From an uncultured Acidobacteriota bacterium (GTDB taxonomy: Bacteria; Acidobacteriota; UBA6911; RPQK01; JAPXNP01), in assembly GCA_963723965.1 (NCBI GenBank), contig CAVRSV010000007.1:702251-766250 (forward strand): DNA of 64,000 bases. Direction: 5' to 3'. Each line of letters begins with the position of its first letter. Position 1 is the stretch's first letter. The notes below the pieces were generated by a model, which was not told the origin of the DNA, searched no databases, and worked only from the letters and a program-made list of their open reading frames with translations. Shown here one piece after another: positions 1,519-12,230 of this stretch. A program made the translations under genes and the position numbers.

Positions 1519-2076
1519 ATGGCTGAGAAACACCTCGCGCGGATGATCCGACTGGTCATCCCCGCCGTGTTGCTGACGGGCTGGCTGATTCTGGGGGCCT
1601 GTTCCACGCCTGCCGAAAACTCCCCGCAGGGGGCGGGCGTGGCCGGCCCCGAAACTCAGGCCGCAGGAAAGATTCGCGAACTGGTCCAGAGCTGGGCCGC
1701 AGATCTCAACCGGGGCAATGCGGCGGCGGCCGCTTCCATCTATGCTCCGGACGTACTCTACATGCCGCCCGGTCAACCCGCCCTGCAGGGGCGCGAGAAG
1801 GTCCAGGAGTTCCTGGACCGGCTTCTGCCGGGCGGCCGGTCCTCTTTTTCTTACAGCTCGCGAGAGATCCAAGTCTCGGGAGGACTGGCTTACGAACGGG
1901 GTGTCTTCGTGATGACGTTGACCCAGGACGGAGCGGCATCCCAGTCCGAGAACGGCAATCTGCTGCGCCTGTTCCAGCTCAGCGCCGACGGGGCCTGGCA
2001 GGTCACCCGGGAGATCTGGAATGTCAGCCTGACCTCGGCGGGCACTGAACGGCAGGGCGCTTCTTCCCGTCAGTGA
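1519..2076 (+). CDS. Lipoprotein with SnoaL-like/DUF4440 (NTF2-fold) domain.
   Basis: Signal peptide plus lipobox (LILGACS); NTF2-like motif YAPDVLYMPPGQPALQGREKVQEFL; good GC3 bias. Confidence 0.6.
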   Translation: MAEKHLARMIRLVIPAVLLTGWLILGACSTPAENSPQGAGVAGPETQAAGKIRELVQSWAADLNRGNAAAAASIYAPDVLYMPPGQPALQGREKVQEFLDRLLPGGRSSFSYSSREIQVSGGLAYERGVFVMTLTQDGAASQSENGNLLRLFQLSADGAWQVTREIWNVSLTSAGTERQGASSRQ

Positions 2077-2094
2077 TGGGAAACGGAGGATTCC

Positions 2095-2469
2095 ATGAAT
2101 GCTCACAGGTCACTTGCCCCTTGGGCCGTTCTGGGCGCCCTCATGGCCGTGTTGTTGCTTTCCGCCTGCGGCGCCCGCCGAGTCAACCAGATCTTGAGCG
2201 ACCCGACCAAGTACGCCCGCAGTGACGTGAAGCTCCAGGGCACGGTGACCGAGAGCTTCTCCGTCCTGGGCAAGGGAGCTTACCAGCTCAGTGACGGGAC
2301 GGGACGGATCTGGGTCGTCTCGAAGAGCGGAGTTCCCCGCAAGGGTGCCAGAGTGTCCGTGAAAGGCCGCGTTCGAGAAGCCTTCGATCTGGGGGGACTG
2401 GTCTCCCTTCCCAAGGGTCTGGACTCCGGCGTGGTCCTGGTCGAATCCTCGCACAAGGCCAAAGACTGA
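2095..2469 (+). CDS. Small lipoprotein (OB-fold-like, YgiW/BOF-like).
   Basis: Signal peptide with lipobox LLSACG; 124 aa; RBS ggagga upstream; coding GC3 bias. Confidence 0.55.
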   Translation: MNAHRSLAPWAVLGALMAVLLLSACGARRVNQILSDPTKYARSDVKLQGTVTESFSVLGKGAYQLSDGTGRIWVVSKSGVPRKGARVSVKGRVREAFDLGGLVSLPKGLDSGVVLVESSHKAKD

Positions 2470-2542
2470 GCTTCCGCACCCCGCACTTAGGCTCCTCCTC
2501 GTTCCACGGGGGAGCAAGGAAACGCCGAAGGGCGAAGGGCAC

Positions 2543-2577
2543 CTAGAAACTAGAAACTCGAAACTCGGAACTCAGCC
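2543..2577. repeat. Tandem heptamer repeat CTMGRAA x5 (rc GAGTTTC-like) overlapping the stop codon and last 7 codons of the olsA-like gene.
   Basis: ctagaaa ctagaaa ctcgaaa ctcggaa ctcagcc; on the reverse strand these encode ...EFRVSSF* of the PlsC-like protein. Confidence 0.7.
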
Positions 2578-3370
2578 CCTCGAACATCCCCTGCACGGCA
2601 TCGTGCAGCTCTTTGGCCAGGACGATCCGATCTCGATCCGCGCCGGATCGAGGTTCGCCGAAGACGACCTGCGCACGGATTCCGTTCAAGCCGAACAGCC
2701 GCCAAAGATGACGGACGAAGTTGTGGTCCTTCCAGTAGGCGATGTCTTCGGACACGGAAATCGCGGGATCGGAAGAACTCCAGCGGATGGCGATCGGGAC
2801 GATGGGGGCTCCGGACTCCAACACAGGCTCCAGCAGCGCAGGATGGAAACGCCGCACACCCTCGCCGCCGCTGGTCGTCCCCTCCAGGAAGATGCAGACC
2901 CGGCAGCCGGACTGAAGCCGTTCACGGATCTCGCCCATGCTCAGCAGCATCCGGCGCGTGCGCGAACGCTGGAGGAAGACCTGCTCGGTCGTCCGGGCGA
3001 GAAAGCCGATTCCCGGCCAGGATGCGATCTCCGCCTTGGCCACGAAAACTGCGGGGGCCAGCGAGGCGAGAAGCAGAATGTCCAGATAGCTCTGGTGATT
3101 GGGGACCAGGCACGAGCCGACCGGCGGCGTGGGGCCCCGAACGGTTTTCTCGAGCCCGAGCCGCCGGCAGATGGCCTCGGCCCATCGACGGAATAGCCGC
3201 AAGGCCTCCTCGCGTCCTGCCATCTTCGGCCGCCCCCATCTCCTGATCATCAGCAGGGCCAGCAGGTAGAGCGTCAGGAAGAGGACGAAACCAAGACGCA
3301 GGACCGCCCTCAGGGGGTTGGAGCGTCGCCTGCCCACGCCGACGGGAGCGCTGGAGTTCTTCATCGGCAT
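2543..3370 (-). CDS. olsA: Lysophospholipid / lyso-aminolipid O-acyltransferase (PlsC family; OlsA-like).
   Basis: PlsC motifs NHQSYLD (HX4D) and FLEGTTS; N-terminal TM helix. Lies 64 bp downstream of the olsB-like gene on the same strand. Confidence 0.75.
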   Translation of the reverse strand: MPMKNSSAPVGVGRRRSNPLRAVLRLGFVLFLTLYLLALLMIRRWGRPKMAGREEALRLFRRWAEAICRRLGLEKTVRGPTPPVGSCLVPNHQSYLDILLLASLAPAVFVAKAEIASWPGIGFLARTTEQVFLQRSRTRRMLLSMGEIRERLQSGCRVCIFLEGTTSGGEGVRRFHPALLEPVLESGAPIVPIAIRWSSSDPAISVSEDIAYWKDHNFVRHLWRLFGLNGIRAQVVFGEPRSGADRDRIVLAKELHDAVQGMFEGLSSEFRVSSF

Positions 3371-3434
3371 TCGCTAGACGACCACCCTGAGACTCGACAA
3401 AGTGACGCCCTGGGCATCCAGCATCACCAGGAAG

Positions 3435-4250
3435 TCAATGGTCCCGAACGCCCGGTCCATGGCTGGTTCGGAAAGCACCTTGGCCCCCAGCCGCAGATAG
3501 ATCTTGAACAGCTTGGGCAGGGGGATAATCCTCCGCCCGCGGCGAAGGCGTCCCCGAATGCCGGGCCGCCGGATCCGACGGCCGACAGGCAAAATCCGGC
3601 CTCGCCTCCACCAGCAACTTCTCGTCGACGGATCCTTGACGACGGAGTGTCTCGAGCGCCCACCACCCCACGGCGGGATCCGTCGAGGTGATCGAACAGC
3701 AGCCAAACAGATAACGCTGATCGTGGAGATTGAGGTAGGCCCCCAGACCCAGCCAGAGCTGCAGGAGTGCGCGCGCGTTCCGATGCTCCGGCGACAGACA
3801 GGCCCGCCCGCACTCGGTCGCCCGGGCGAAGAGCGGGCGCATCTTCTCCAGGCAGAATTCCTGCGCCGAATAGGACCCCAGCGAGGAGAGCTCGGCCTTC
3901 GCCATCGTCTGGATACGATAGGTCCCGACCACCCGTCCGGTCGTCCTCTCCACCAGCACGAGGTGGGTCATCTGCGCATCGAAGGGATCCTCGTCCAGAC
4001 CCGTCAGGGCGGACGTGGCCAGCCCCTCCCCGAGCTCCAGGTTGAAGATCTCGTAGCGCAACCTGAGGGCCAGTTCCAGGCAGCGCCGAGAACAGCAGAA
4101 ACCGGTCACATATCGCGAGCCGGGCGGGCCCTCGACAGTCAGCAGATCGATCTGCTCGCGGTAGCGCTCGAAATCGGAAACCTCACGGAGTTCCCGCATC
4201 CGGAAGGAGTCGATCGCACTCGAAACGGGCAAGAGCACCCCCTTGGGCAT
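3435..4250 (-). CDS. olsB: GNAT-family N-acyltransferase (OlsB / N-acyl amino acid synthase-like; putative-hemolysin family).
   Basis: Pattern RLRYEIFNLELGEG...GLDEDPFDAQMTHLVLVE is typical of OlsB/GlsB/NAS N-acyltransferases; 271 aa; upstream of olsA-like gene. Confidence 0.7.
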   Translation of the reverse strand: MPKGVLLPVSSAIDSFRMRELREVSDFERYREQIDLLTVEGPPGSRYVTGFCCSRRCLELALRLRYEIFNLELGEGLATSALTGLDEDPFDAQMTHLVLVERTTGRVVGTYRIQTMAKAELSSLGSYSAQEFCLEKMRPLFARATECGRACLSPEHRNARALLQLWLGLGAYLNLHDQRYLFGCCSITSTDPAVGWWALETLRRQGSVDEKLLVEARPDFACRPSDPAARHSGTPSPRAEDYPPAQAVQDLSAAGGQGAFRTSHGPGVRDH

Positions 4251-4280
4251 CCCTTCCCGGCAGCCGCATCGGCTCCGGGA

Positions 4281-5927
4281 TCATGACGCCACGCTTGGCG
4301 GATAGGTCCGGCTGAGGCGAAAGTACCTCCAGCAATCGCGCAGCAGCCGACCCGCAGATACACACGACGCACCCCGCGCGCGATTGAGCGAACCAATCCG
4401 GAACAGAATTCTGAACTGTCGGAACAACGTCTTGTAGGCCTCCCCCAGAGGCATCTCGGGATCCCAGATGTGCGTGGCCTCCGCCCCGGCACCATTGATT
4501 TCGATGATCTGAAAGTCCCGCCCCTCGGCCAGATCTTCGGGACTTCGGCTCCGCACGTCCAGCCTCCCGAAATAGAAGTCGGGCATGGAGGAGAAAATCG
4601 CGTCGAGCCGACGGGTCAGAGCCGGCGTCGCCAAACGGTCTCCCCGCCGAAACACCGCACCCTGACAGTGGTTGCCGGCAAAGACCAGGGGAAGCTGCTC
4701 TCCGGGATCGAGGATCCGGTCCAATTGCCCCTGAAACCGCCTGAAGTAGACATGAGTGAAGAACCGAGCCCGCGGATCGGCCAGGATCAGCTCCCTCAGG
4801 GAAAGACGACCGTCTCCTTCCACACGGGGAAACTCCTTGATCGTCACCGAGAAGATCTGACCTGAGGCCTCACCGGGGACACGGTAGTACAGAATGCCGG
4901 CTTCGAAAGGACCTTCCGCGAACTCCTGCAGGAGCAGCCTTTGTGCGACGGGAAAGGCGGCCACGTATCGACGAAGCTCCGACTCGTCGCGAATCAGTCG
5001 GACTCCGGCGCCGCGCTGTCCGACATCCGGCTTGGCCACGAAGGGATAGTCGAGGCCGGCCGTTTTGAGGGTTTTGCGGAGGATCGGCAGGAGCTCATCG
5101 ACGGGTCTCCCCGCCCGATCGAAGCGGATATAGCGGCACAGCAGGCCGCGCAGGGACCCCGGAACCAGATCCAGTATCTGGGCCTTCGATTCCCCGATCA
5201 TGCCCCCTGAGTAAACCGAAGGGTTCGCCGCCGTGGGCAGGGTCAGACCTCGAAAGCGCACGGACAGCCAGAGGTAGTACAGGCCGACGGGAAAGTAGAA
5301 CAGCGGAGCCGGCCAGAGCTCGAAGGCGGAGACGGCGGAGCGGACTTCCGGTGCGGCTTCACCCTTACGGCTGCGGGCGGCCAGCCTTTGAGCGACGATC
5401 AGAACCGCGAGACCGACGATCAGAACGGGCCATTTGAGGCTTCCCAGGGCCGGCAGTACAGCCTCGCCGAACTTCAGGGTCGCGGACAGGAGAAGAAAGG
5501 TCCAGACCAGGGAGGCGAAAACGACCACCAGGGCGAACCTGACGAAGGAGGCGCCAAACAGACCGGCACCGAGATAGGTCGGAAGCCGCATCCCCGGCAT
5601 GAATCTCGAGACCAGGACAGCAGTAACGAGATTGCGATCGAAAAGCCTGCGCGCCTGGGCCACCCGTGCATCCGATATCCACCCCAGGGCCAGCGTCCGG
5701 GGTCCGATCAGCCGACCCAAGCCAAACAGGCCCAGATCTCCGACCGCAATGCCGACGGAAACCCCGATGAGGGCGGTGGTAAAGCCGAGCCTGCCGTCGG
5801 CCACGAGGAGACCGCAGCCGACCGTGGTCGGATCTTCGAGGATGAAGGTGGACAAAGCGGCCACCAAACCCTGCAGAACGGGATGATCCGCCAGGGTCCG
5901 GGTCAGCTCCGCAAGCCACTGAACCAT
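4281..5927 (-). CDS. Membrane DedA/VTT-domain protein fused to a C-terminal ATP-grasp (carboxylate-amine ligase-like) domain.
   Basis: N-terminal ~230 aa are multi-TM and DedA/SNARE-associated-like. C-terminal ~300 aa have ATP-grasp motifs (FVAKPDVGQRGAGV, LLQEF, IIEINGAGAE). Start chosen at ATG 5927 (MVQWLAEL, GGGGAG RBS); the longer ORF to 6023 is possible. Only 30 bp upstream of the olsB-like gene. Confidence 0.65.
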   Translation of the reverse strand: MVQWLAELTRTLADHPVLQGLVAALSTFILEDPTTVGCGLLVADGRLGFTTALIGVSVGIAVGDLGLFGLGRLIGPRTLALGWISDARVAQARRLFDRNLVTAVLVSRFMPGMRLPTYLGAGLFGASFVRFALVVVFASLVWTFLLLSATLKFGEAVLPALGSLKWPVLIVGLAVLIVAQRLAARSRKGEAAPEVRSAVSAFELWPAPLFYFPVGLYYLWLSVRFRGLTLPTAANPSVYSGGMIGESKAQILDLVPGSLRGLLCRYIRFDRAGRPVDELLPILRKTLKTAGLDYPFVAKPDVGQRGAGVRLIRDESELRRYVAAFPVAQRLLLQEFAEGPFEAGILYYRVPGEASGQIFSVTIKEFPRVEGDGRLSLRELILADPRARFFTHVYFRRFQGQLDRILDPGEQLPLVFAGNHCQGAVFRRGDRLATPALTRRLDAIFSSMPDFYFGRLDVRSRSPEDLAEGRDFQIIEINGAGAEATHIWDPEMPLGEAYKTLFRQFRILFRIGSLNRARGASCVSAGRLLRDCWRYFRLSRTYPPSVAS

Positions 5928-6215
5928 CGCCAGTACTCCCCAGAATGAGATCCACCCCGATGCGGAGGGGGCGCTTGGGAGCAGCCACTTCCGCCGTCCG
6001 GGGTGATACCGCTTCCCCGGCAACTGTCTCTGCGGCCGGCCACGAGGTGCCTCAGCAGATTACAGTGTTTGAGCCGAATAGAAAAGCCCGGGAGCACGAA
6101 CTCGGCCGGTCCCGGCCGCCGGCGGGTGACGCGCCGCGCGAGGAGTTGCGGCGTCCCGCGATCACCCCGTAGAATCCTTGCGTCGGATAGAATCGAGACT
6201 GCCTGGAGAATCACC

Positions 6216-7385
6216 TTGAACCCCCTCGACCACGCCCTCCAACCCCACTTGAAGGAGCTGTGCAGCGTCGATTCCTCAGTGGAATTGAGCCGTCTCCCGT
6301 TGTACCGGCAGCTCTGCCCCGAGTTTGAACGGGTTCTGGGTTTCGTGCTGACCGGACAGGCGAGGCCCGGCGTGCGTCCCGCCCTTCCGCACGTCCGCGC
6401 CACGGCCTGGAACATCGAGCGCGGAATCGAGCTCGAGGGCATTACGGAGACCTTCCGTCGACATCCCCAGATCGCGGACAGCGATCTGCTGCTTCTCACC
6501 GAACTGGACTACGGCATGGCCCGCAGCCTCAACTCGAAAGTCCCCGTCGAGCTGGCCGAGGCCCTGGGGTTCGATTTTGCATTCGCCCCCTCTTACCTGA
6601 ATCTCGAAAAAGGCAGCGGACTCGAGGCCACAGCCAAGGGCTCCAATGAATTCGGTCTCCACGGAAATGCGATCCTTTCCCGCTTCCCCCTGCACGAGGC
6701 CCACTCGGTCGCGCTTCCGAACGGGAAAGACAAAATGCGTGGCAAGGAGAAGCGTCTGGGCTGCCAACGGGCGGTCATCGCCCTCGTCGACCATCCCTGG
6801 GGAAAATTTCGGGCCGTCAGCGTGCATCTCGACGCTCACTCCACCCAAAAGCACCGCATGTACCAGATGCGCCTGGTACTGGACGACCTGGACCGATTCC
6901 ACCCCGAACTCCCGGCGCTGATCGGCGGCGACTGGAACACATCAACCTACAACTCGCGCAACGCCCTTTTCTCGATCCTCGGCTACGTTCGCCGGGTGCT
7001 GATGGGGGTACGACACGTCATCCGCAATCACTATCCACACCCCGATCGCTGGTTCGAGCGTCACCTGTTCCGCGAATTGGAGCGACGGGGGTTCCGCTAC
7101 CGCGAATTCAACCAGCCCGGAGGCTGCACCCTGCACTACGACGTCGCCGATCTGGCCGCCAACGGCCGCATGGCGGACTGGATCCCCAACTGGTGCTTCT
7201 GGTTCATCAACTGGGCCCTGGCCAAAAACGACGGCCGCTGCTCCTTCAAGCTCGACTGGTTCGCGGGCCAGGGAATCGAGACCGTACCGGGTCTGGCGCC
7301 CCGCGTGATCACCGACGTCAATGCTGCAGACCGATGCCTGTCCGATCACGATCCCATCGTGCTCGATTTTCGACTTGCCCGCTGA
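6216..7385 (+). CDS. Endonuclease/exonuclease/phosphatase (EEP) family protein.
   Basis: EEP-fold motifs (WNIERG, LLTELD, GDWN, SDHDPIVLDF). TTG start at 6216 with GGAGA RBS; upstream part of the long ORF is Arg-rich noise overlapping the previous gene. Confidence 0.6.
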   Translation: MNPLDHALQPHLKELCSVDSSVELSRLPLYRQLCPEFERVLGFVLTGQARPGVRPALPHVRATAWNIERGIELEGITETFRRHPQIADSDLLLLTELDYGMARSLNSKVPVELAEALGFDFAFAPSYLNLEKGSGLEATAKGSNEFGLHGNAILSRFPLHEAHSVALPNGKDKMRGKEKRLGCQRAVIALVDHPWGKFRAVSVHLDAHSTQKHRMYQMRLVLDDLDRFHPELPALIGGDWNTSTYNSRNALFSILGYVRRVLMGVRHVIRNHYPHPDRWFERHLFRELERRGFRYREFNQPGGCTLHYDVADLAANGRMADWIPNWCFWFINWALAKNDGRCSFKLDWFAGQGIETVPGLAPRVITDVNAADRCLSDHDPIVLDFRLAR

Positions 7386-7563: not shown

Positions 7564-9996
7564 CTACGGCTCGTCGTCGCTCGCGGGCTCGGTCGGGCGA
7601 TTCTTTACGTAGCGGTCGAACCAGTCGATCATCTCGGCCAGCACATCCAGGATCGACTCGCGGGCCGCGTAGGCGTGGGCCTCTCTGGGCAGCAGGACCA
7701 GCCGGGCCGTACCGCCGAGCCCCTGAATGGCCCGGAACAGTCTCAAGGACTGCATCGGGAAGGTGCCCGAATTGTTGTCGTCCTGTCCGTGGATCAGCAG
7801 AAGGGGCTGGTTGATCCGATCCGCATGCATGAAGGGCGACATCGTGAAGTAGACTTCCGGGGCCTCCCAGAAGGTCCGCCGCTCGTTCTGGAAGCCGAAT
7901 GGCGTCAAGGTCCGGTTGTAGGCGCCGCTGCGGGCGATGCCGGCGGCGAACAGGTCCGAGTGGGCCAGCAGGTTTGCGGCCATGAAAGCACCGTAACTGT
8001 GTCCGCCGATCCCGATTCGGCGAGGATCGGCAACGCCCATGGCGACCACCTTGTCGATGGCGGCGCGCGCGTTCATGACCAACTGTTCGACGAAGGTGTC
8101 GTTGCCGTCCTTGCCGACGATGGGCATCGCCGGTCCATCCAGGACGGCGTAACCCTGGGTCAGAAAGAAGAGCTGCGAGGCCCCGCTCAGGCGGGTGAAT
8201 CGGGCGGATGAGCCACGCACCTGGGAGGCGATGTCCGGATCGTTGTACTCCCGCGGATAAGCCCACATGACGAGGGGCAACCGCTCCCCTTCCTGAGAAC
8301 CCGGCGGCAGGTACAGCGTCCCCGACAGCTCGATCCCGTCTTCTCTCCAGTACCTGATGAGTTCCTTTGTCACGCCCCGCAACTCCGGAGCCGGGTCGGG
8401 AAAGGCCGTCACCGTACGCTCGGTTCCGTCGGCGAGGTTGCGGACCCGATAGCTCGGCGGGTCCTGCCGAGTCTCGTGACGAGTCAGAAGGGTGGGCGTT
8501 CCGGGATCGAGGATGGCGGCCACGGTTTCATAGACCGCCGGAGCCGACCGAAACAGCTCCGTGGATTCCAGGGTCTGCAGATCGAGACGGGTCAGCACGG
8601 GGTGATCTCCATCGGGGGAGCCGCCAGGACCGTTCAGGAAGACGGAGTCCCCTTCCCGAAGCACCATGGGCCTGCCCGAGGCGTCTCGAACCGTCATGAA
8701 GTCGCCGGGATCGTTGTAGGCGTCGAATCGGCCTCGTTCCCAGAGCAGCCGGGCGGGCCTTGCCGGGTCGACCGGGAGATCCAGCAACCAGGTGCGCGTC
8801 CGTTGGGTGTCGCGATCCGCCTCCGAAACGAAGACTCCCTCGTCCGCCATCCAGTCCAGACCGGACAACCGCCACTGGGTTCGCATCAGTTCGGTCGCCT
8901 CGTCCTGGAAAGGTGCCTCGAGCTGCATGAGACGATCGCGGTACTCGACCTCGCGTTTCGGATCGCCTTCGTCGAGCGCCTCCTTCCAGACCAGAACCGC
9001 AGGGGCCGAGGGCTTCCACTCGTAGCTGCGCGGTCCGGTTCGCACCCCTCCAATCGGGATCCCTTCGGCCAGCGGAACCTTCGCCACCGTGAAGACCTTC
9101 TTGCCGGTCAGATTCCAGATTTCGATCTCCCGGGGAAAGAACGATTCCGGCACCACATAGGAGTAGGGTCGGACCACACGCTCGAGGAGCAGGTACTGGC
9201 CCCCGGGTGATATCTCGCTGGACCCGAAAATCCCCGGGTCCCCAAGATCCCGACGCCGACCGCTTCTGATGGAGACGACCGCCAGCTGGGACCTGAGCAG
9301 GTATTCATACATGCGCACGTCCCCCGCATCCGAGAGCAGGTCCTGATAGGTGCGCACCGGCGCCTTCGCGCCTGACGTATCCTCCTCCACGGGGCCGGTC
9401 GGCAACTCCGCGCGATCCGGCGGCCCCCCCGCCGGTTCGGCTCGAAATCGACACAGCAGGTGGATCGAGTCGGGGAACCACTCGCAGGGCCCCGAGGCCG
9501 GATTCAGGGTCGGCTCCGAAACCCGCTTCGAATGCCCGTTCTCGATGTTGGCGACCCACAACTCCGCTCCCGTGTTCCGATAGTTCACGAAAGCGATCTT
9601 CTGGCCGTCGGGCGACCAGAACGGGGTCCCCGGATTGGCGCCTTCCGGAAGCTCGATCACCTGCTCGGATCCATCTGCAACGGAAAGCACCTGCATCCCG
9701 ACGATCTGCCCGCGTCGGTCGGGGACGGGGCCCCGATTGCGGGGATTGAAGCGCTTGCCCGCCAATCGGACGCGGGGCTGGGCAAGGTCGGCGATTCCGG
9801 GCATGCCGGCACGTTGCACCAGGAGAAGCGATTGCCGACCGGGGGCGATTTGGACCTCGGGAAAAGGGGCTCGATCCAGGAGATCGACGACCATCTTCGG
9901 CGGAGTCTTGTACTCGGGCTGCGCAGCAAAAGAGTGCGAAAGCCCGGCGCCCAGCAGACAGAGCCCAAACCAGGAGAGACGGTTGCGACACTTCAT
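7564..9996 (-). CDS. Secreted S9-family serine peptidase (prolyl oligopeptidase/DPP family) with N-terminal beta-propeller.
   Basis: Signal peptide MKCRNRLSWFGLCLLGAGLS; catalytic GGHSYGAF nucleophile elbow; C-terminal alpha/beta hydrolase with D and H (LLIHGQDDNN..., REAHAY). Confidence 0.85.
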   Translation of the reverse strand: MKCRNRLSWFGLCLLGAGLSHSFAAQPEYKTPPKMVVDLLDRAPFPEVQIAPGRQSLLLVQRAGMPGIADLAQPRVRLAGKRFNPRNRGPVPDRRGQIVGMQVLSVADGSEQVIELPEGANPGTPFWSPDGQKIAFVNYRNTGAELWVANIENGHSKRVSEPTLNPASGPCEWFPDSIHLLCRFRAEPAGGPPDRAELPTGPVEEDTSGAKAPVRTYQDLLSDAGDVRMYEYLLRSQLAVVSIRSGRRRDLGDPGIFGSSEISPGGQYLLLERVVRPYSYVVPESFFPREIEIWNLTGKKVFTVAKVPLAEGIPIGGVRTGPRSYEWKPSAPAVLVWKEALDEGDPKREVEYRDRLMQLEAPFQDEATELMRTQWRLSGLDWMADEGVFVSEADRDTQRTRTWLLDLPVDPARPARLLWERGRFDAYNDPGDFMTVRDASGRPMVLREGDSVFLNGPGGSPDGDHPVLTRLDLQTLESTELFRSAPAVYETVAAILDPGTPTLLTRHETRQDPPSYRVRNLADGTERTVTAFPDPAPELRGVTKELIRYWREDGIELSGTLYLPPGSQEGERLPLVMWAYPREYNDPDIASQVRGSSARFTRLSGASQLFFLTQGYAVLDGPAMPIVGKDGNDTFVEQLVMNARAAIDKVVAMGVADPRRIGIGGHSYGAFMAANLLAHSDLFAAGIARSGAYNRTLTPFGFQNERRTFWEAPEVYFTMSPFMHADRINQPLLLIHGQDDNNSGTFPMQSLRLFRAIQGLGGTARLVLLPREAHAYAARESILDVLAEMIDWFDRYVKNRPTEPASDDEP

Positions 9997-10092
9997 TAAA
10001 CGCTATTATGCAGTCCCGGCCTCGCCGAAGTGGAGTCAGCGGAAATTCCGGGGGGGGCTGCCGTCTCGATCCGAATACCGTAGAATCAGAAC

Positions 10093-10869
10093 ATGTTGCG
10101 AGCTCGGAAGACCGTCGGAGCGGCTGTTCTCGTAGTCCTTGCGACTCTCGCCTTCGGTCAATCCGATGCGCTTCTACAGAAGCTGCAGCCCACCGGCTAC
10201 GTGGACGACTTCGCGGGAGTCTTCAAGCCGGCCCAGCGTACCAGTCTGGAAGGATACCTGCAGGAACTCGACCAGAAGACGGGGGCTCAGGTAGCCGTTG
10301 TCACCCTCCAATCCATCGACGGCGGCGAGATCCGAGATTTCGCCAACCGCCTGTTCGAGAAGTGGGGCATCGGGAAGAAGGGCGACGATCGCGGCCTGCT
10401 CATTCTGACGGTGCTCGACCAGAGACGCATCTGGGTCGAGGTCGGTTACGGGCTCGAGCCGCTCTTGCCCGATGCGCGAGTTGGAAGGATCCTCGACCAG
10501 TCGGTCATGCCCTATTTCCGACGCGGTGACCTGGCGGACGGACTCATTGCAGGCGCCCAGGCTTATGGCGCCGTCATCGCCGAGCAGGCGGGCGTTCAGA
10601 TCACGCAGGGCATCGCACAGCCTCGGCCGGAAGCCGTCGGGACGGGGGCTCACCAACTGAGCTGCACCGAACTTCTCCTGATCGGACTCGCCCTGTTGAT
10701 CTTCATCCCCATCATCATGCGGCACCCCTGGCTCCTTCTGTTTCTGCTCAACTCGGGACGCGGAGGCGGCTTCGGCGGCGGCGGCTTCGGCGGTGGCTTC
10801 GGCGGCGGCGGATTTGGCGGTTTCGGCGGTGGAATGTCGGGAGGCGGCGGAGCCGGTCGCAGTTGGTGA
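10093..10869 (+). CDS. TPM-domain (YgcG-like) protein with C-terminal TM helix and Gly-rich tail.
   Basis: Signal peptide; TPM/DUF477 motifs (YVDDFAGV..., GLLILTVLDQRRIWVEVGYGLE); poly-GGGFGGG C-terminus. Confidence 0.75.
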   Translation: MLRARKTVGAAVLVVLATLAFGQSDALLQKLQPTGYVDDFAGVFKPAQRTSLEGYLQELDQKTGAQVAVVTLQSIDGGEIRDFANRLFEKWGIGKKGDDRGLLILTVLDQRRIWVEVGYGLEPLLPDARVGRILDQSVMPYFRRGDLADGLIAGAQAYGAVIAEQAGVQITQGIAQPRPEAVGTGAHQLSCTELLLIGLALLIFIPIIMRHPWLLLFLLNSGRGGGFGGGGFGGGFGGGGFGGFGGGMSGGGGAGRSW

Positions 10870-10909
10870 CCAGTCGCGGGCAGCCGGCTGGAAAACGAGG
10901 AGGTCGAAC

Positions 10910-11638
10910 GTGAAACCGGAAGACTTAGTGAGGAAACTGCAGGAAACCCTCGGATCCCGCCTGAAGTCCGTGATCCTCTATGGATCCGCGGCTGCCGGCG
11001 ACTATCTTGCCGAGGGCTCCGACTTCAACATCCTCGTGGCCCTCGAGCGACTGGGCCTCGACGAGTTGGATGCGCTGGTGCCCATCACCGAGAAATGGGT
11101 GAAGGAGGGAAATCCTCCTCCCCTGCTCTTCACGAAAGACCGATTCGAACGATCGGCCGATGTATTCCCGATCGAGATCCTCGACATCAAGGAATCGCAC
11201 CGGGTGTTGTCCGGAGAGGACATCGTGGCCGAGCTGGACGTCTCGCGGGAGAACCTTCGCCTTCAGCTCGAGCACGAACTGAAGGGAAAACTGATCCAGT
11301 TGCGGGCCGCCTTCCTGGTAACCAAACGAGACTCGGGACGAATCGTCGCGCTCATGGTAGATTCGTTGTCGTCGTTCCTGGTGCTGGCCCGTGCGGCCCT
11401 GAGGTTGATCCAAGATCAGGTGCCCGCGAAGAAGATGGAAGCGCTCAAGCTGCTGGCGGAAAGCTTCCAGTTCGAGACGGGAGCCTTTGAAACCGTTCAG
11501 CAGATCAAGGAGGGCGTGCTCAAGGCGCGTGATGTCGAGGCAGAGCCGCTCTTCTCAAGGTATCTGGAGACGGTGGAGCGTCTGACCGATCGGGTGGATT
11601 CGTTCCTCCAGGAACAAGCCGTCAAGCAGCCGGACTGA
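10910..11638 (+). CDS. Nucleotidyltransferase-domain protein.
   Basis: GTG start with AGGAGG RBS; ILYGSAAAGDYLAEGSDFNILVALE is the minimal NTase G[SG]...D.D motif. Confidence 0.6.
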   Translation: MKPEDLVRKLQETLGSRLKSVILYGSAAAGDYLAEGSDFNILVALERLGLDELDALVPITEKWVKEGNPPPLLFTKDRFERSADVFPIEILDIKESHRVLSGEDIVAELDVSRENLRLQLEHELKGKLIQLRAAFLVTKRDSGRIVALMVDSLSSFLVLARAALRLIQDQVPAKKMEALKLLAESFQFETGAFETVQQIKEGVLKARDVEAEPLFSRYLETVERLTDRVDSFLQEQAVKQPD

Positions 11639-11660
11639 GGGAGTAGAAGGAGCTCGGAGC

Positions 11661-12230
11661 ATGGCAAAGAAGATTCTGCTGGGTCTGTTGATCCTGATCG
11701 TCGTGGTCGGACTTTTCGTCGCCGTCTCGGCAATCGGGACCTACAACCAACTGGTAACGTTGAATGAGCGAGTGGGCAGTTCCTGGGCCCAGGTCGAAAC
11801 GGTGCTTCAGCGACGATTCGACCTGATCCCGAACCTCGTCAACACGGTCAAGGGCTATGCCCAGCAGGAGCAAACGGTCTTCACGGAGGTAACGCGTTTA
11901 CGCAGCCAGTGGGGACAGGCCCAGACGGTCGCAGAAAAGGCACAGGTCGCCGGCAGCCTCGAGGGCGCGCTTTCCCGCCTTCTGGTGGTGTCCGAGCGCT
12001 ACCCCGAACTCAAGTCGAATCAGAACTTCCTGGCCCTTCAGGATGAACTGAGTGGGACGGAGAACCGCATCGCCGTCGAGCGCCGGCGCTACAACGAGGC
12101 CGTCCAGCAATACAACACCGCCATCCGGCGCTTTCCGGCCAACATCGTCGCGTCTCTGGCCGGTTTCCAGGCGGCGACCTACTTCGAAGCCGCCCAAGGT
12201 GCCGAGGAGGCCCCGAAAGTCCAGTTCTAA
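11661..12230 (+). CDS. lemA: LemA family protein.
   Basis: N-terminal TM plus conserved LemA core (YNQLVTLNERVGSSWAQVETVLQRRFDLIPNLV); 189 aa. Confidence 0.85.
   Translation: MAKKILLGLLILIVVVGLFVAVSAIGTYNQLVTLNERVGSSWAQVETVLQRRFDLIPNLVNTVKGYAQQEQTVFTEVTRLRSQWGQAQTVAEKAQVAGSLEGALSRLLVVSERYPELKSNQNFLALQDELSGTENRIAVERRRYNEAVQQYNTAIRRFPANIVASLAGFQAATYFEAAQGAEEAPKVQF

Follow-up and report, generated by a model that had tools for sequence, protein, structure and literature searches.

We found that the window, a stretch of 64,000 nucleotides from an uncultured Acidobacteriota bacterium (assembly GCA_963723965.1, contig CAVRSV010000007.1, positions 702,251 to 766,250), carries a putative aminolipid operon headed by a gene that fuses a DedA/VTT membrane domain to an ATP-grasp domain. 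The region 2543-6023 holds three minus-strand open reading frames (ORFs) in succession, exactly where an earlier note, made from the letters of this DNA alone, had placed three same-strand genes; an OlsB-type N-acyltransferase gene and an OlsA-like O-acyltransferase gene follow the fusion. We predict that the fusion is a membrane ligase that phosphorylates the carboxylate of a lipid head group and then joins an amine or amino acid to it as an amide, a reading to which we assign a probability of roughly 55%. More tentatively, and at somewhat less than even odds, the DedA/ATP-grasp pair would represent a missing class of ATP-dependent ligases that extend aminolipid head groups and are coupled to a dedicated lipid transporter. 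The evidence consists of domain identities, conserved catalytic residues, the pairing of the two domains and conserved gene linkage; what the substrate and nucleophile are, which way the ligation runs and what DedA does are inferred from it. When phosphate is limiting, aminolipids take the place of phospholipids; they also influence stress resistance and serve as immune ligands, lipid 654 being an example.

Assigning the C-terminal half of the fusion to the ATP-grasp fold required a family profile and structure prediction, because searches with the single sequence gave no usable match. Pfam returned no ATP-grasp family at E≤0.01, NCBIfam gave weak RimK-family (6e-4) and CPS-like matches at around 1e-3, and phmmer against PDB sequences reached only Ddl, at E ~0.1. 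A profile of the C-terminal domain plus its stand-alone homologues (A4) matched CphA2 (5.8e-9), PDB entry 7ta5 (8.8e-8), CphA1 (1.8e-5) and Ddl (2.8e-4), as well as CPS. The AlphaFold2 model of the fusion, computed with 120 homologues, reached a pLDDT of 92.4 and a pTM of 0.79 and displays a hydrophobic helix at residues 207-224 followed by an alpha/beta C-terminal domain. Foldseek aligned this model to GshF, CphA1/2, many Ddl structures and CPS in the PDB, with E values of 7e-8 to 2e-5 and a probability of 1.00. Some relatives also exceed the Pfam cutoff for RimK (PF08443).

The putative active site is conserved across the family. Over 120 aligned sequences, K299, G303, G306, G308, D457 and N478 never vary and the conservation of R455 and E476 is at least 90%, such that the ATP-binding Lys and the Mg-ligand residues show no sign of loss. 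K299 is part of the ATP-site motif VAKPDxGQRGxGV, while R455-x-D457 and E476-I-N478 form the putative Mg2+ ligand region. In alignment with CphA2, the family patterns YPVVVKPdiGcnGtGV and rvIEINGaG (YPFVAKPDVGQRGAGV and IIEINGAG in the window) fall on its KPxxGxxGxGV and IEIN. The domain opens with a conserved hydrophobic helix that carries the motif FE[FL]WPxxxFYxPV. We assign the C-terminal half to the ATP-grasp fold and predict ligase activity from these sequence features; the CphA G-domain, GshF and Ddl, its nearest solved relatives, each join an amine to a carboxylate that they have activated. The earlier note had expected Pfam to detect an ATP-grasp domain. Its domain call is borne out by the profile, the model and the residues, whereas no Pfam ATP-grasp model matched the protein.

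The N-terminal half, all-helical in the AlphaFold2 model, matches the VTT domain of Pfam (PF09335, E 3e-13) with 50.7 bits against a gathering cutoff of 33.9, as had been expected for a DedA protein. NCBIfam matches to UptA and DedA models are weak, the best being UptA, an undecaprenyl-phosphate transporter, at 29.7 bits. Invariant residues of the domain in the 120-sequence alignment are E31/D32, D64 and R108-x5-R114. E31/D32, D64, R108 and R114 may correspond to the functional residues E39/D51/R130/R136 of E. coli YqjA.

More than 1000 full-length homologues of the fusion at ~50% identity, annotated only as VTT/DedA, occur in Acidobacteriota, Hydrogenedentota, Sumerlaeota, Planctomycetota, Poribacteria, Methylomirabilis and delta-proteobacterial lineages, and a profile search of 1.84 billion representatives at 50% identity yielded 1,554 clusters at E≤1e-30. 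A DedA domain always accompanies the ATP-grasp domain, within one fusion protein in most phyla and as the product of a separate adjacent gene in several proteobacterial loci, where the DedA protein has ~195 aa and the ATP-grasp protein ~365 aa. The stand-alone ATP-grasp proteins retain the N-terminal FE[FL]WP...FY.PV hydrophobic helix, which suggests that the ligase associates with the membrane by itself. Both the pairing and the retained helix are consistent with membrane association and a lipid substrate. In longer forms an N-terminal alpha/beta-hydrolase (ABH) domain extends the fusion to an ABH::DedA::ATP-grasp protein of ~800-1030 aa (L068 5927-8575 and L079 5984-8647; P0376, P0311, P0346, P0353 and P0375). 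The same hydrolase is encoded as a separate neighbor after olsA in two loci (L010 and L017) and also in Paracoccus denitrificans PD1222. The gene after olsA, labeled 'c0', was at one point taken for a second ATP-grasp/DedA paralogue; we rejected this, as it is the alpha/beta hydrolase, joined to the family by single-linkage clustering through the triple fusions.

Current annotation hides this family. Stand-alone members are often named 'D-alanine--D-alanine ligase' at NCBI, which is a wrong name, and fusions are called 'VTT domain-containing protein'; others are 'hypothetical'. Of the listed stand-alone proteins, only one has an entry in the precomputed Pfam domain field. Domain-based searches for ligases are therefore likely to overlook the family, Pfam ATP-grasp models having missed the window protein. 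The literature searched contained no paper linking DedA, ATP-grasp and lipids, and mentioned ATP-grasp together with ornithine lipid only in a generic citation, in agreement with the earlier note, which knew of no established ATP-grasp step in aminolipid synthesis. The DedA/ATP-grasp family is a large, uncharacterised and mis-annotated ATP-grasp subfamily, and its partnership with DedA is without precedent in the literature searched.

The pairing bears on whether the ligase would act on a lipid at all. L-amino-acid ligases are ATP-grasp enzymes, one of them (3vot) is among the weaker matches of profile A4, and the ligase gene stands first in the operon. The ATP-grasp domain could accordingly make a soluble dipeptide or amide that OlsB then N-acylates. 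We regard this order of events as very unlikely: a ligase for soluble substrates has no evident need for a DedA partner, fused or paired, or for a hydrophobic helix, and in Bacteroides the extension to serine-glycine (Ser-Gly) lipid follows N-acylation, glycine lipid being the intermediate (PMC12971839).

Gene neighborhoods link the family strongly to aminolipid synthases. We collected 80 genome loci, clustered their ORFs and scanned them with hidden Markov models (HMMs) built from the clusters; neighbors, defined as genes within 3 kb of the fusion, were counted in the 44 loci that had 2.5 kb or more of flanking sequence on each side. The neighborhood is conserved, with an OlsB-domain gene near the fusion in 31 of the 44 loci (70%). 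A pyridoxal-phosphate (PLP) decarboxylase resembling CSAD or GAD is found in 10/44, and one or the other of these two gene types in 38/44. The OlsB partner takes two forms, either OlsB plus OlsA, as in the window, or a single PlsC+OlsB protein of ~600 aa (OlsF-like), the latter in Thermoanaerobaculia, Holophagae and Desulfobulbaceae. Arrangements include fusion>olsB>olsA, fusion>OlsF-like, OlsF-like>fusion, olsB>fusion, olsB on the opposite strand, and olsB-olsA-NRDE-ABH::fusion, often with only 0-50 nt between the ols gene and the fusion. They span Acidobacteriota, Hydrogenedentota, Sumerlaeota, Nitrospirales, Planctomycetota, Desulfobulbaceae, Bdellovibrionota and Burkholderiales. Arrangement varies from lineage to lineage, so the association is not a single operon passed on by descent, and its recurrence across dozens of genomes and many phyla puts it far beyond chance. 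The linkage extends to cultured bacteria: in Variovorax sp. PDNC026 an olsB-like gene begins 10 nt after the ATP-grasp gene, and in Vibrio sp. THAF191d and Photobacterium sp. GJ3 a DedA-ATP-grasp-DinB-NRDE group lies 1-2 kb upstream of an OlsF-like gene.

After the ols genes, the commonest companions are a DinB_2 gene (20/44 loci) and an NRDE/TANGO2 gene whose product begins with Met-Cys (17/44), found from Vibrionaceae to Hydrogenedentota (L002-L041, L087, e.g. 9129-10447, L088 and L090). An alpha/beta hydrolase gene is near the fusion in 9/44 loci. A further apparent neighbor, cluster 'c1', was dismissed as antisense shadow ORFs typical of high-GC DNA. In five Hydrogenedentota-type loci (L004, L008, L013, e.g. 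3312-5654, L027 and L029), a fusion of a ferric-reductase-type transmembrane domain to a Rieske [2Fe-2S] domain and an unannotated membrane protein recur upstream of DinB-NRDE-fusion-olsB-olsA; these two may contribute a redox or hydroxylation step.

The two acyltransferase genes of the window match the classes that the earlier note had named. The middle gene carries an Acetyltransf_5 domain (PF13444, E 2e-25), and its top NCBIfam scores go to the lipid N-acyltransferases OlsB (86 bits, 2.6e-24) and OlsF (76 bits, 1.9e-21) rather than to non-lipid GNATs, with FeeM weaker at 6.5e-5. The third gene matches PF01553 (E 1e-24), has OlsA as its best NCBIfam model (~101 bits against an equivalog cutoff of 300) and encodes both expected motifs, NHQSYLD (H-x4-D) and FLEGT (EGT); olsA is kept 3' of olsB in 26 related loci. 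The OlsB score does not reach its equivalog cutoff of 350, and at a score so far below it we call the middle gene OlsB-type by sequence, ornithine specificity not being established. Of the earlier description of an ornithine-lipid-like operon, the OlsB and OlsA domains are confirmed and the ornithine label is not.

In the window, olsB is frameshifted. The representative of the OlsB-neighbor cluster matched the window in two different frames, and the two olsB fragments match the cluster HMM at 3e-84 and 7e-21. Compared with both the relative L001 (74% identity) and a 96%-identical metagenome contig, L081, the window has one extra base (Table 1). Both L001 and L081 have an intact olsB, that of L081 encoding 291 aa, the same length as the window gene minus the extra base. 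Frame correction restores the conserved C-terminal segment PLPKLFKIYLRLGAKV...DFLVMLD, which is otherwise out of frame. Since a single-base insertion shifts the frame, the 271-aa olsB ORF (3435-4250) and the 64-nt gap behind it are artefacts. Gaps of 30 to 64 bp had been noted between the genes; the 30 nt between the fusion and olsB stand, and the corrected olsB stop at 3374-3376 leaves 3 nt to the olsA ATG at 3370.

The insertion is either an assembly error at a run of C or a genuine pseudogenising lesion. If it is real, the operon would be decaying in this organism, with no aminolipid made from the locus and the fusion a relic or in another role, a possibility that is independent of the alternatives to the proposed chemistry. 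In its favor are the absence of the extra base from both L001 and L081 and the displaced OlsB C-terminus. We nevertheless think it rather doubtful, given that this is the sole lesion found, the olsB fragments, fusion and olsA being otherwise open and highly conserved, and that it falls at or next to a C5 run. Runs of C are a typical site of assembly or sequencing error.

Some relatives offer a clue to the group that would be added to the lipid. The PLP decarboxylase that recurs beside the fusion has human and mouse cysteine sulfinic acid decarboxylase (CSAD) as its best PDB matches (1e-91), followed by GADL1 and GAD; a literature search found no CSAD substrate motifs, and the claim about its substrate is limited to these matches. 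Decarboxylase, fusion and ols genes occur together in three loci (L026, L054 and L073). In Bdellovibrionota (L058, L062, e.g. 1850-3472, L064 and L070-L077), a cupin::PLP-decarboxylase of ~540 aa adjoins the DedA::ATP-grasp gene. Its N-terminal cupin has an H-x-H-x4-C signature and matches quercetin dioxygenase (1.6e-5) better than cysteine dioxygenase (~7e-3), so that a cysteine-dioxygenase reading is suggestive only. The same neighborhood includes DoxX, YHS-domain, MsrA/MsrB and sigma/anti-sigma genes, which suggests a module linked to sulfur or oxidative stress.

Because the decarboxylase recurs near the fusion, in some cases with a cupin, these genes point to a dedicated supply of an amine nucleophile. 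By sequence similarity, in decarboxylase-bearing lineages the ligase may use as its second substrate an amine formed by decarboxylation, for example hypotaurine, taurine, beta-alanine or GABA. The earlier note had proposed that the fusion adds a second amino acid. Head-group extension as such fits the linkage and the residues, but the decarboxylase neighbors suggest that the added group may instead be an amine (hypotaurine, taurine or beta-alanine).

We propose the following order of reactions. The OlsB-like enzyme would N-acylate an amino acid with a 3-hydroxy fatty acid; the OlsA-like enzyme would esterify a second fatty acid onto that 3-hydroxyl. The ATP-grasp domain, which its own hydrophobic helix and the DedA domain would keep on the cytoplasmic side of the membrane, would then transfer phosphate from ATP to the head group's free alpha-carboxylate, and an amine or amino acid would attack the acyl-phosphate to form an amide. 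The expected product is an acyloxyacyl aminolipid with a dipeptide-type or amine-amide head group, analogous to cerilipin (taurine-ornithine lipid) or flavolipin (serine-glycine lipid). The likely role of the DedA domain is to flip the lipid or to hand it to the ligase.

The same gene linkage and membrane anchoring would also fit a ligase of the opposite polarity, one that activates a free fatty acid or a soluble carboxylate such as Asp, Glu or D-Ala and joins it to the side-chain amine of an ornithine- or lysine-type lipid. The product would be an N-delta/epsilon-acylated or aminoacylated lipid, mirroring the action of D-aspartate ligase on Lys of peptidoglycan precursors. In ATP-grasp enzymes such as Ddl, RimK and Asl either partner can be the macromolecular substrate, and the beta-alanine or GABA that a GAD/CSAD-like decarboxylase could release still carries a carboxylate to activate. 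Such a reaction requires a free side-chain amine, however, and the window OlsB has no established ornithine or lysine specificity. Furthermore, the weak resemblance of the cupin to cysteine dioxygenase favors hypotaurine, which has no carboxylate, and the closest profile relatives, the CphA G-domains, act on a large substrate by activating the carboxylate at its C-terminus. We therefore judge the opposite polarity to be unlikely.

Several observations weigh against amidation of an aminolipid head group. Many Alpha- and Gammaproteobacteria carry the pair away from ols genes, with DinB, NRDE/TANGO2 and alpha/beta hydrolase genes instead; in Acidisoma, Salinivibrio, Paracoccus, Azospirillum and Komagataeibacter no ols gene lies within 8-9 kb of the pair, and in the alphaproteobacterial locus L083 the pair is likewise not beside ols genes. 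These companions are unaccounted for by the model, and a search of the whole 64-kb window found no DinB, NRDE, alpha/beta-hydrolase-partner or CSAD-like gene. Gluconobacter, the source of cerilipin, is missing from the best 120 matches of either of two Acetobacteraceae queries. Finally, the frameshifted olsB may mean that the pathway is inactive in this organism, unless it is a sequence error.

The proteobacterial loci could instead indicate a different membrane substrate, for example a polyprenyl-phosphate-linked precursor, the carboxylate of phosphatidylserine or an acid of lipopolysaccharide (LPS), with adjacency to ols genes reflecting co-regulated envelope remodelling. UptA as the best, if weak, NCBIfam match of the DedA domain would agree with this, as would a FabI gene and an AsmA gene that lie nearby in single loci each. 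We find it improbable in view of the 70% of fully flanked loci with an OlsB-domain gene within 3 kb, the two synthase types involved and the several independent arrangements; genes for peptidoglycan, LPS or phosphatidylserine are not among the recurring neighbors. The head-group ligase proposed by the earlier note survives every computational test run and gains strength from the linkage to aminolipid synthases of two types, though it is still a prediction.

The features of the operon are listed in Table 1. The start of the fusion gene at the ATG at 5927 agrees with more than 100 full-length homologues that align from the same Met; a TTG further upstream, at 6023, is a possible alternative. A promoter and terminator scan of 2000-6400 gave no signal above shuffled expectation, so the operon boundaries are drawn from spacing and conservation only.

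Table 1. Coordinates of the operon and its parts in the window
Feature	Position	Strand	Description and basis
DedA(VTT)::ATP-grasp fusion gene	4281..5927	-	548 aa; ORF call and homologue alignment; first gene of operon
N-terminal DedA/VTT membrane domain	5358..5927	-	~aa 1-190; PF09335
C-terminal ATP-grasp carboxylate-amine ligase domain (predicted)	4281..5342	-	~aa 196-548; profile vs PDB, Foldseek, conserved residues
OlsB-type N-acyltransferase gene	3374..4250	-	291 aa after removal of one extra base; frameshifted in window
1-nt insertion frameshifting olsB	3520..3530	-	minus-strand GATTATCCCCC; alignments to L001 and L081
OlsA/PlsC-type O-acyltransferase gene	2543..3370	-	275 aa; PF01553, H-x4-D and EGT motifs

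A divergent gene of the endonuclease/exonuclease/phosphatase (EEP) family (PF03372; 6003-7385, plus strand) adjoins the operon and occupies the same position only in the closest relative, L001, whose counterpart is 80% identical over 396 aa; its true start is probably well 3' of the listed GTG. The EEP family includes enzymes similar to sphingomyelinase and phospholipase C, and a lipid-related role is possible. The genes beyond it (7564-12230) look unrelated to the operon. Among them are a putative S9-type peptidase of 810 aa, named by reading its translation, which also adjoins the locus in L001, an ORF at 10093-10869 with a C-terminal tail of GGGF repeats, and a putative LemA-like ORF at 11661-12230, likewise named from its translation only.

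If the proposal is true, the family would account for reactions such as the amidation of ornithine lipid with taurine or hypotaurine and the addition of the second residue in dipeptide lipids, and undescribed amide-extended aminolipids would be predicted in Acidobacteriota, Hydrogenedentota, Sumerlaeota, Planctomycetota, Bdellovibrionota, Vibrionaceae and others. It is a candidate family for orphan head-group steps, namely taurine to ornithine lipid and serine to glycine lipid. The question is directly testable in genetically tractable carriers, which include Paracoccus denitrificans PD1222, Vibrio, Variovorax, Azospirillum and Komagataeibacter. A DedA domain hard-wired to a lipid-modifying enzyme would also be a rare opportunity to learn what the poorly understood DedA family does.

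Among known systems, the G-domain of CphA, GshF, Ddl and RimK share with the window protein the ATP-grasp fold and the same set of ATP and Mg ligands (K299, D457 and E476-x-N478). CphA is the best profile match and among the best Foldseek matches; it phosphorylates the carboxylate at the end of its substrate, after which an amine attacks. In contrast to CphA, GshF and Ddl, the window protein is missed by the Pfam ATP-grasp models, has its own hydrophobic helix and an ExTHIWD motif, is obligatorily partnered with DedA and has no link to cyanophycin, glutathione or peptidoglycan genes. With the DedA/VTT lipid transporters (UptA/PopT, YqjA/YghB and TMEM41B/VMP1) it shares a VTT domain above the Pfam cutoff; the conserved acidic residues of its first helix and its R-x5-R pair (R108, R114) may have counterparts among the functional residues of YqjA. 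Unlike these transporters, DedA proteins of the window type are fused to, or paired in an operon with, a cytoplasmic ligase.

Cerilipin of Gluconobacter cerinus, in which taurine is attached to the carboxyl of the ornithine head group in an ATP-dependent reaction whose gene is unknown (2026 review, PMC12971839), resembles the predicted product in reaction type, in that an amine is coupled to the head-group carboxyl of an aminolipid at the expense of ATP. Several Acetobacteraceae genera (Komagataeibacter, Gluconacetobacter, Novacetimonas, Acidisoma and Rhodopila) have members of the family, and the CSAD-like decarboxylase beside some relatives could make hypotaurine or taurine. However, with no Gluconobacter among the best matches and with the Komagataeibacter, Acidisoma and L083 loci away from ols genes, identity with the taurine-transferring enzyme is unsupported, and the resemblance is one of reaction type.

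Flavolipin, lipid 654 and the doreamides of Bacteroidota likewise have a second residue, joined through an amide bond to the carboxyl group of the N-acyl amino acid that the OlsB homologue GlsB produces. The gene that ligates Ser in these Ser-Gly lipids 'remains to be identified' according to a 2025 paper (PMC12746155), in line with the earlier note; the authors of the paper searched B. dorei for amide-forming Pfam families, ATP-grasp included, without success. Their search would probably miss the DedA/ATP-grasp family, because Pfam missed the window protein. On the other hand, no Bacteroidota are found among the best 80 genome loci of the family.

The classical OlsBA and OlsF systems share the OlsB (PF13444) and OlsA/PlsC (PF01553, H-x4-D) enzymes in canonical order, with the OlsF-like fusion in other phyla, but have no ATP-grasp or DedA partner, and the window proteins score far below their equivalog cutoffs (86 vs 350 and 101 vs 300). 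The planctomycete OlsHI system offers another ATP-dependent, amide-forming enzyme, a recent addition to aminolipid synthesis: OlsH, which is GH3-like, forms the fatty-acyl-ornithine amide, and the alpha/beta hydrolase OlsI is the O-acyltransferase (PMC12971839). An alpha/beta hydrolase also recurs beside, or fused to, members of the DedA/ATP-grasp family. OlsH, however, is of the adenylating GH3/ANL type and makes the fatty-acyl-ornithine bond itself, whereas the window enzyme is predicted to be of the ATP-grasp (acyl-phosphate) type and is encoded beside an OlsB that would make that bond.

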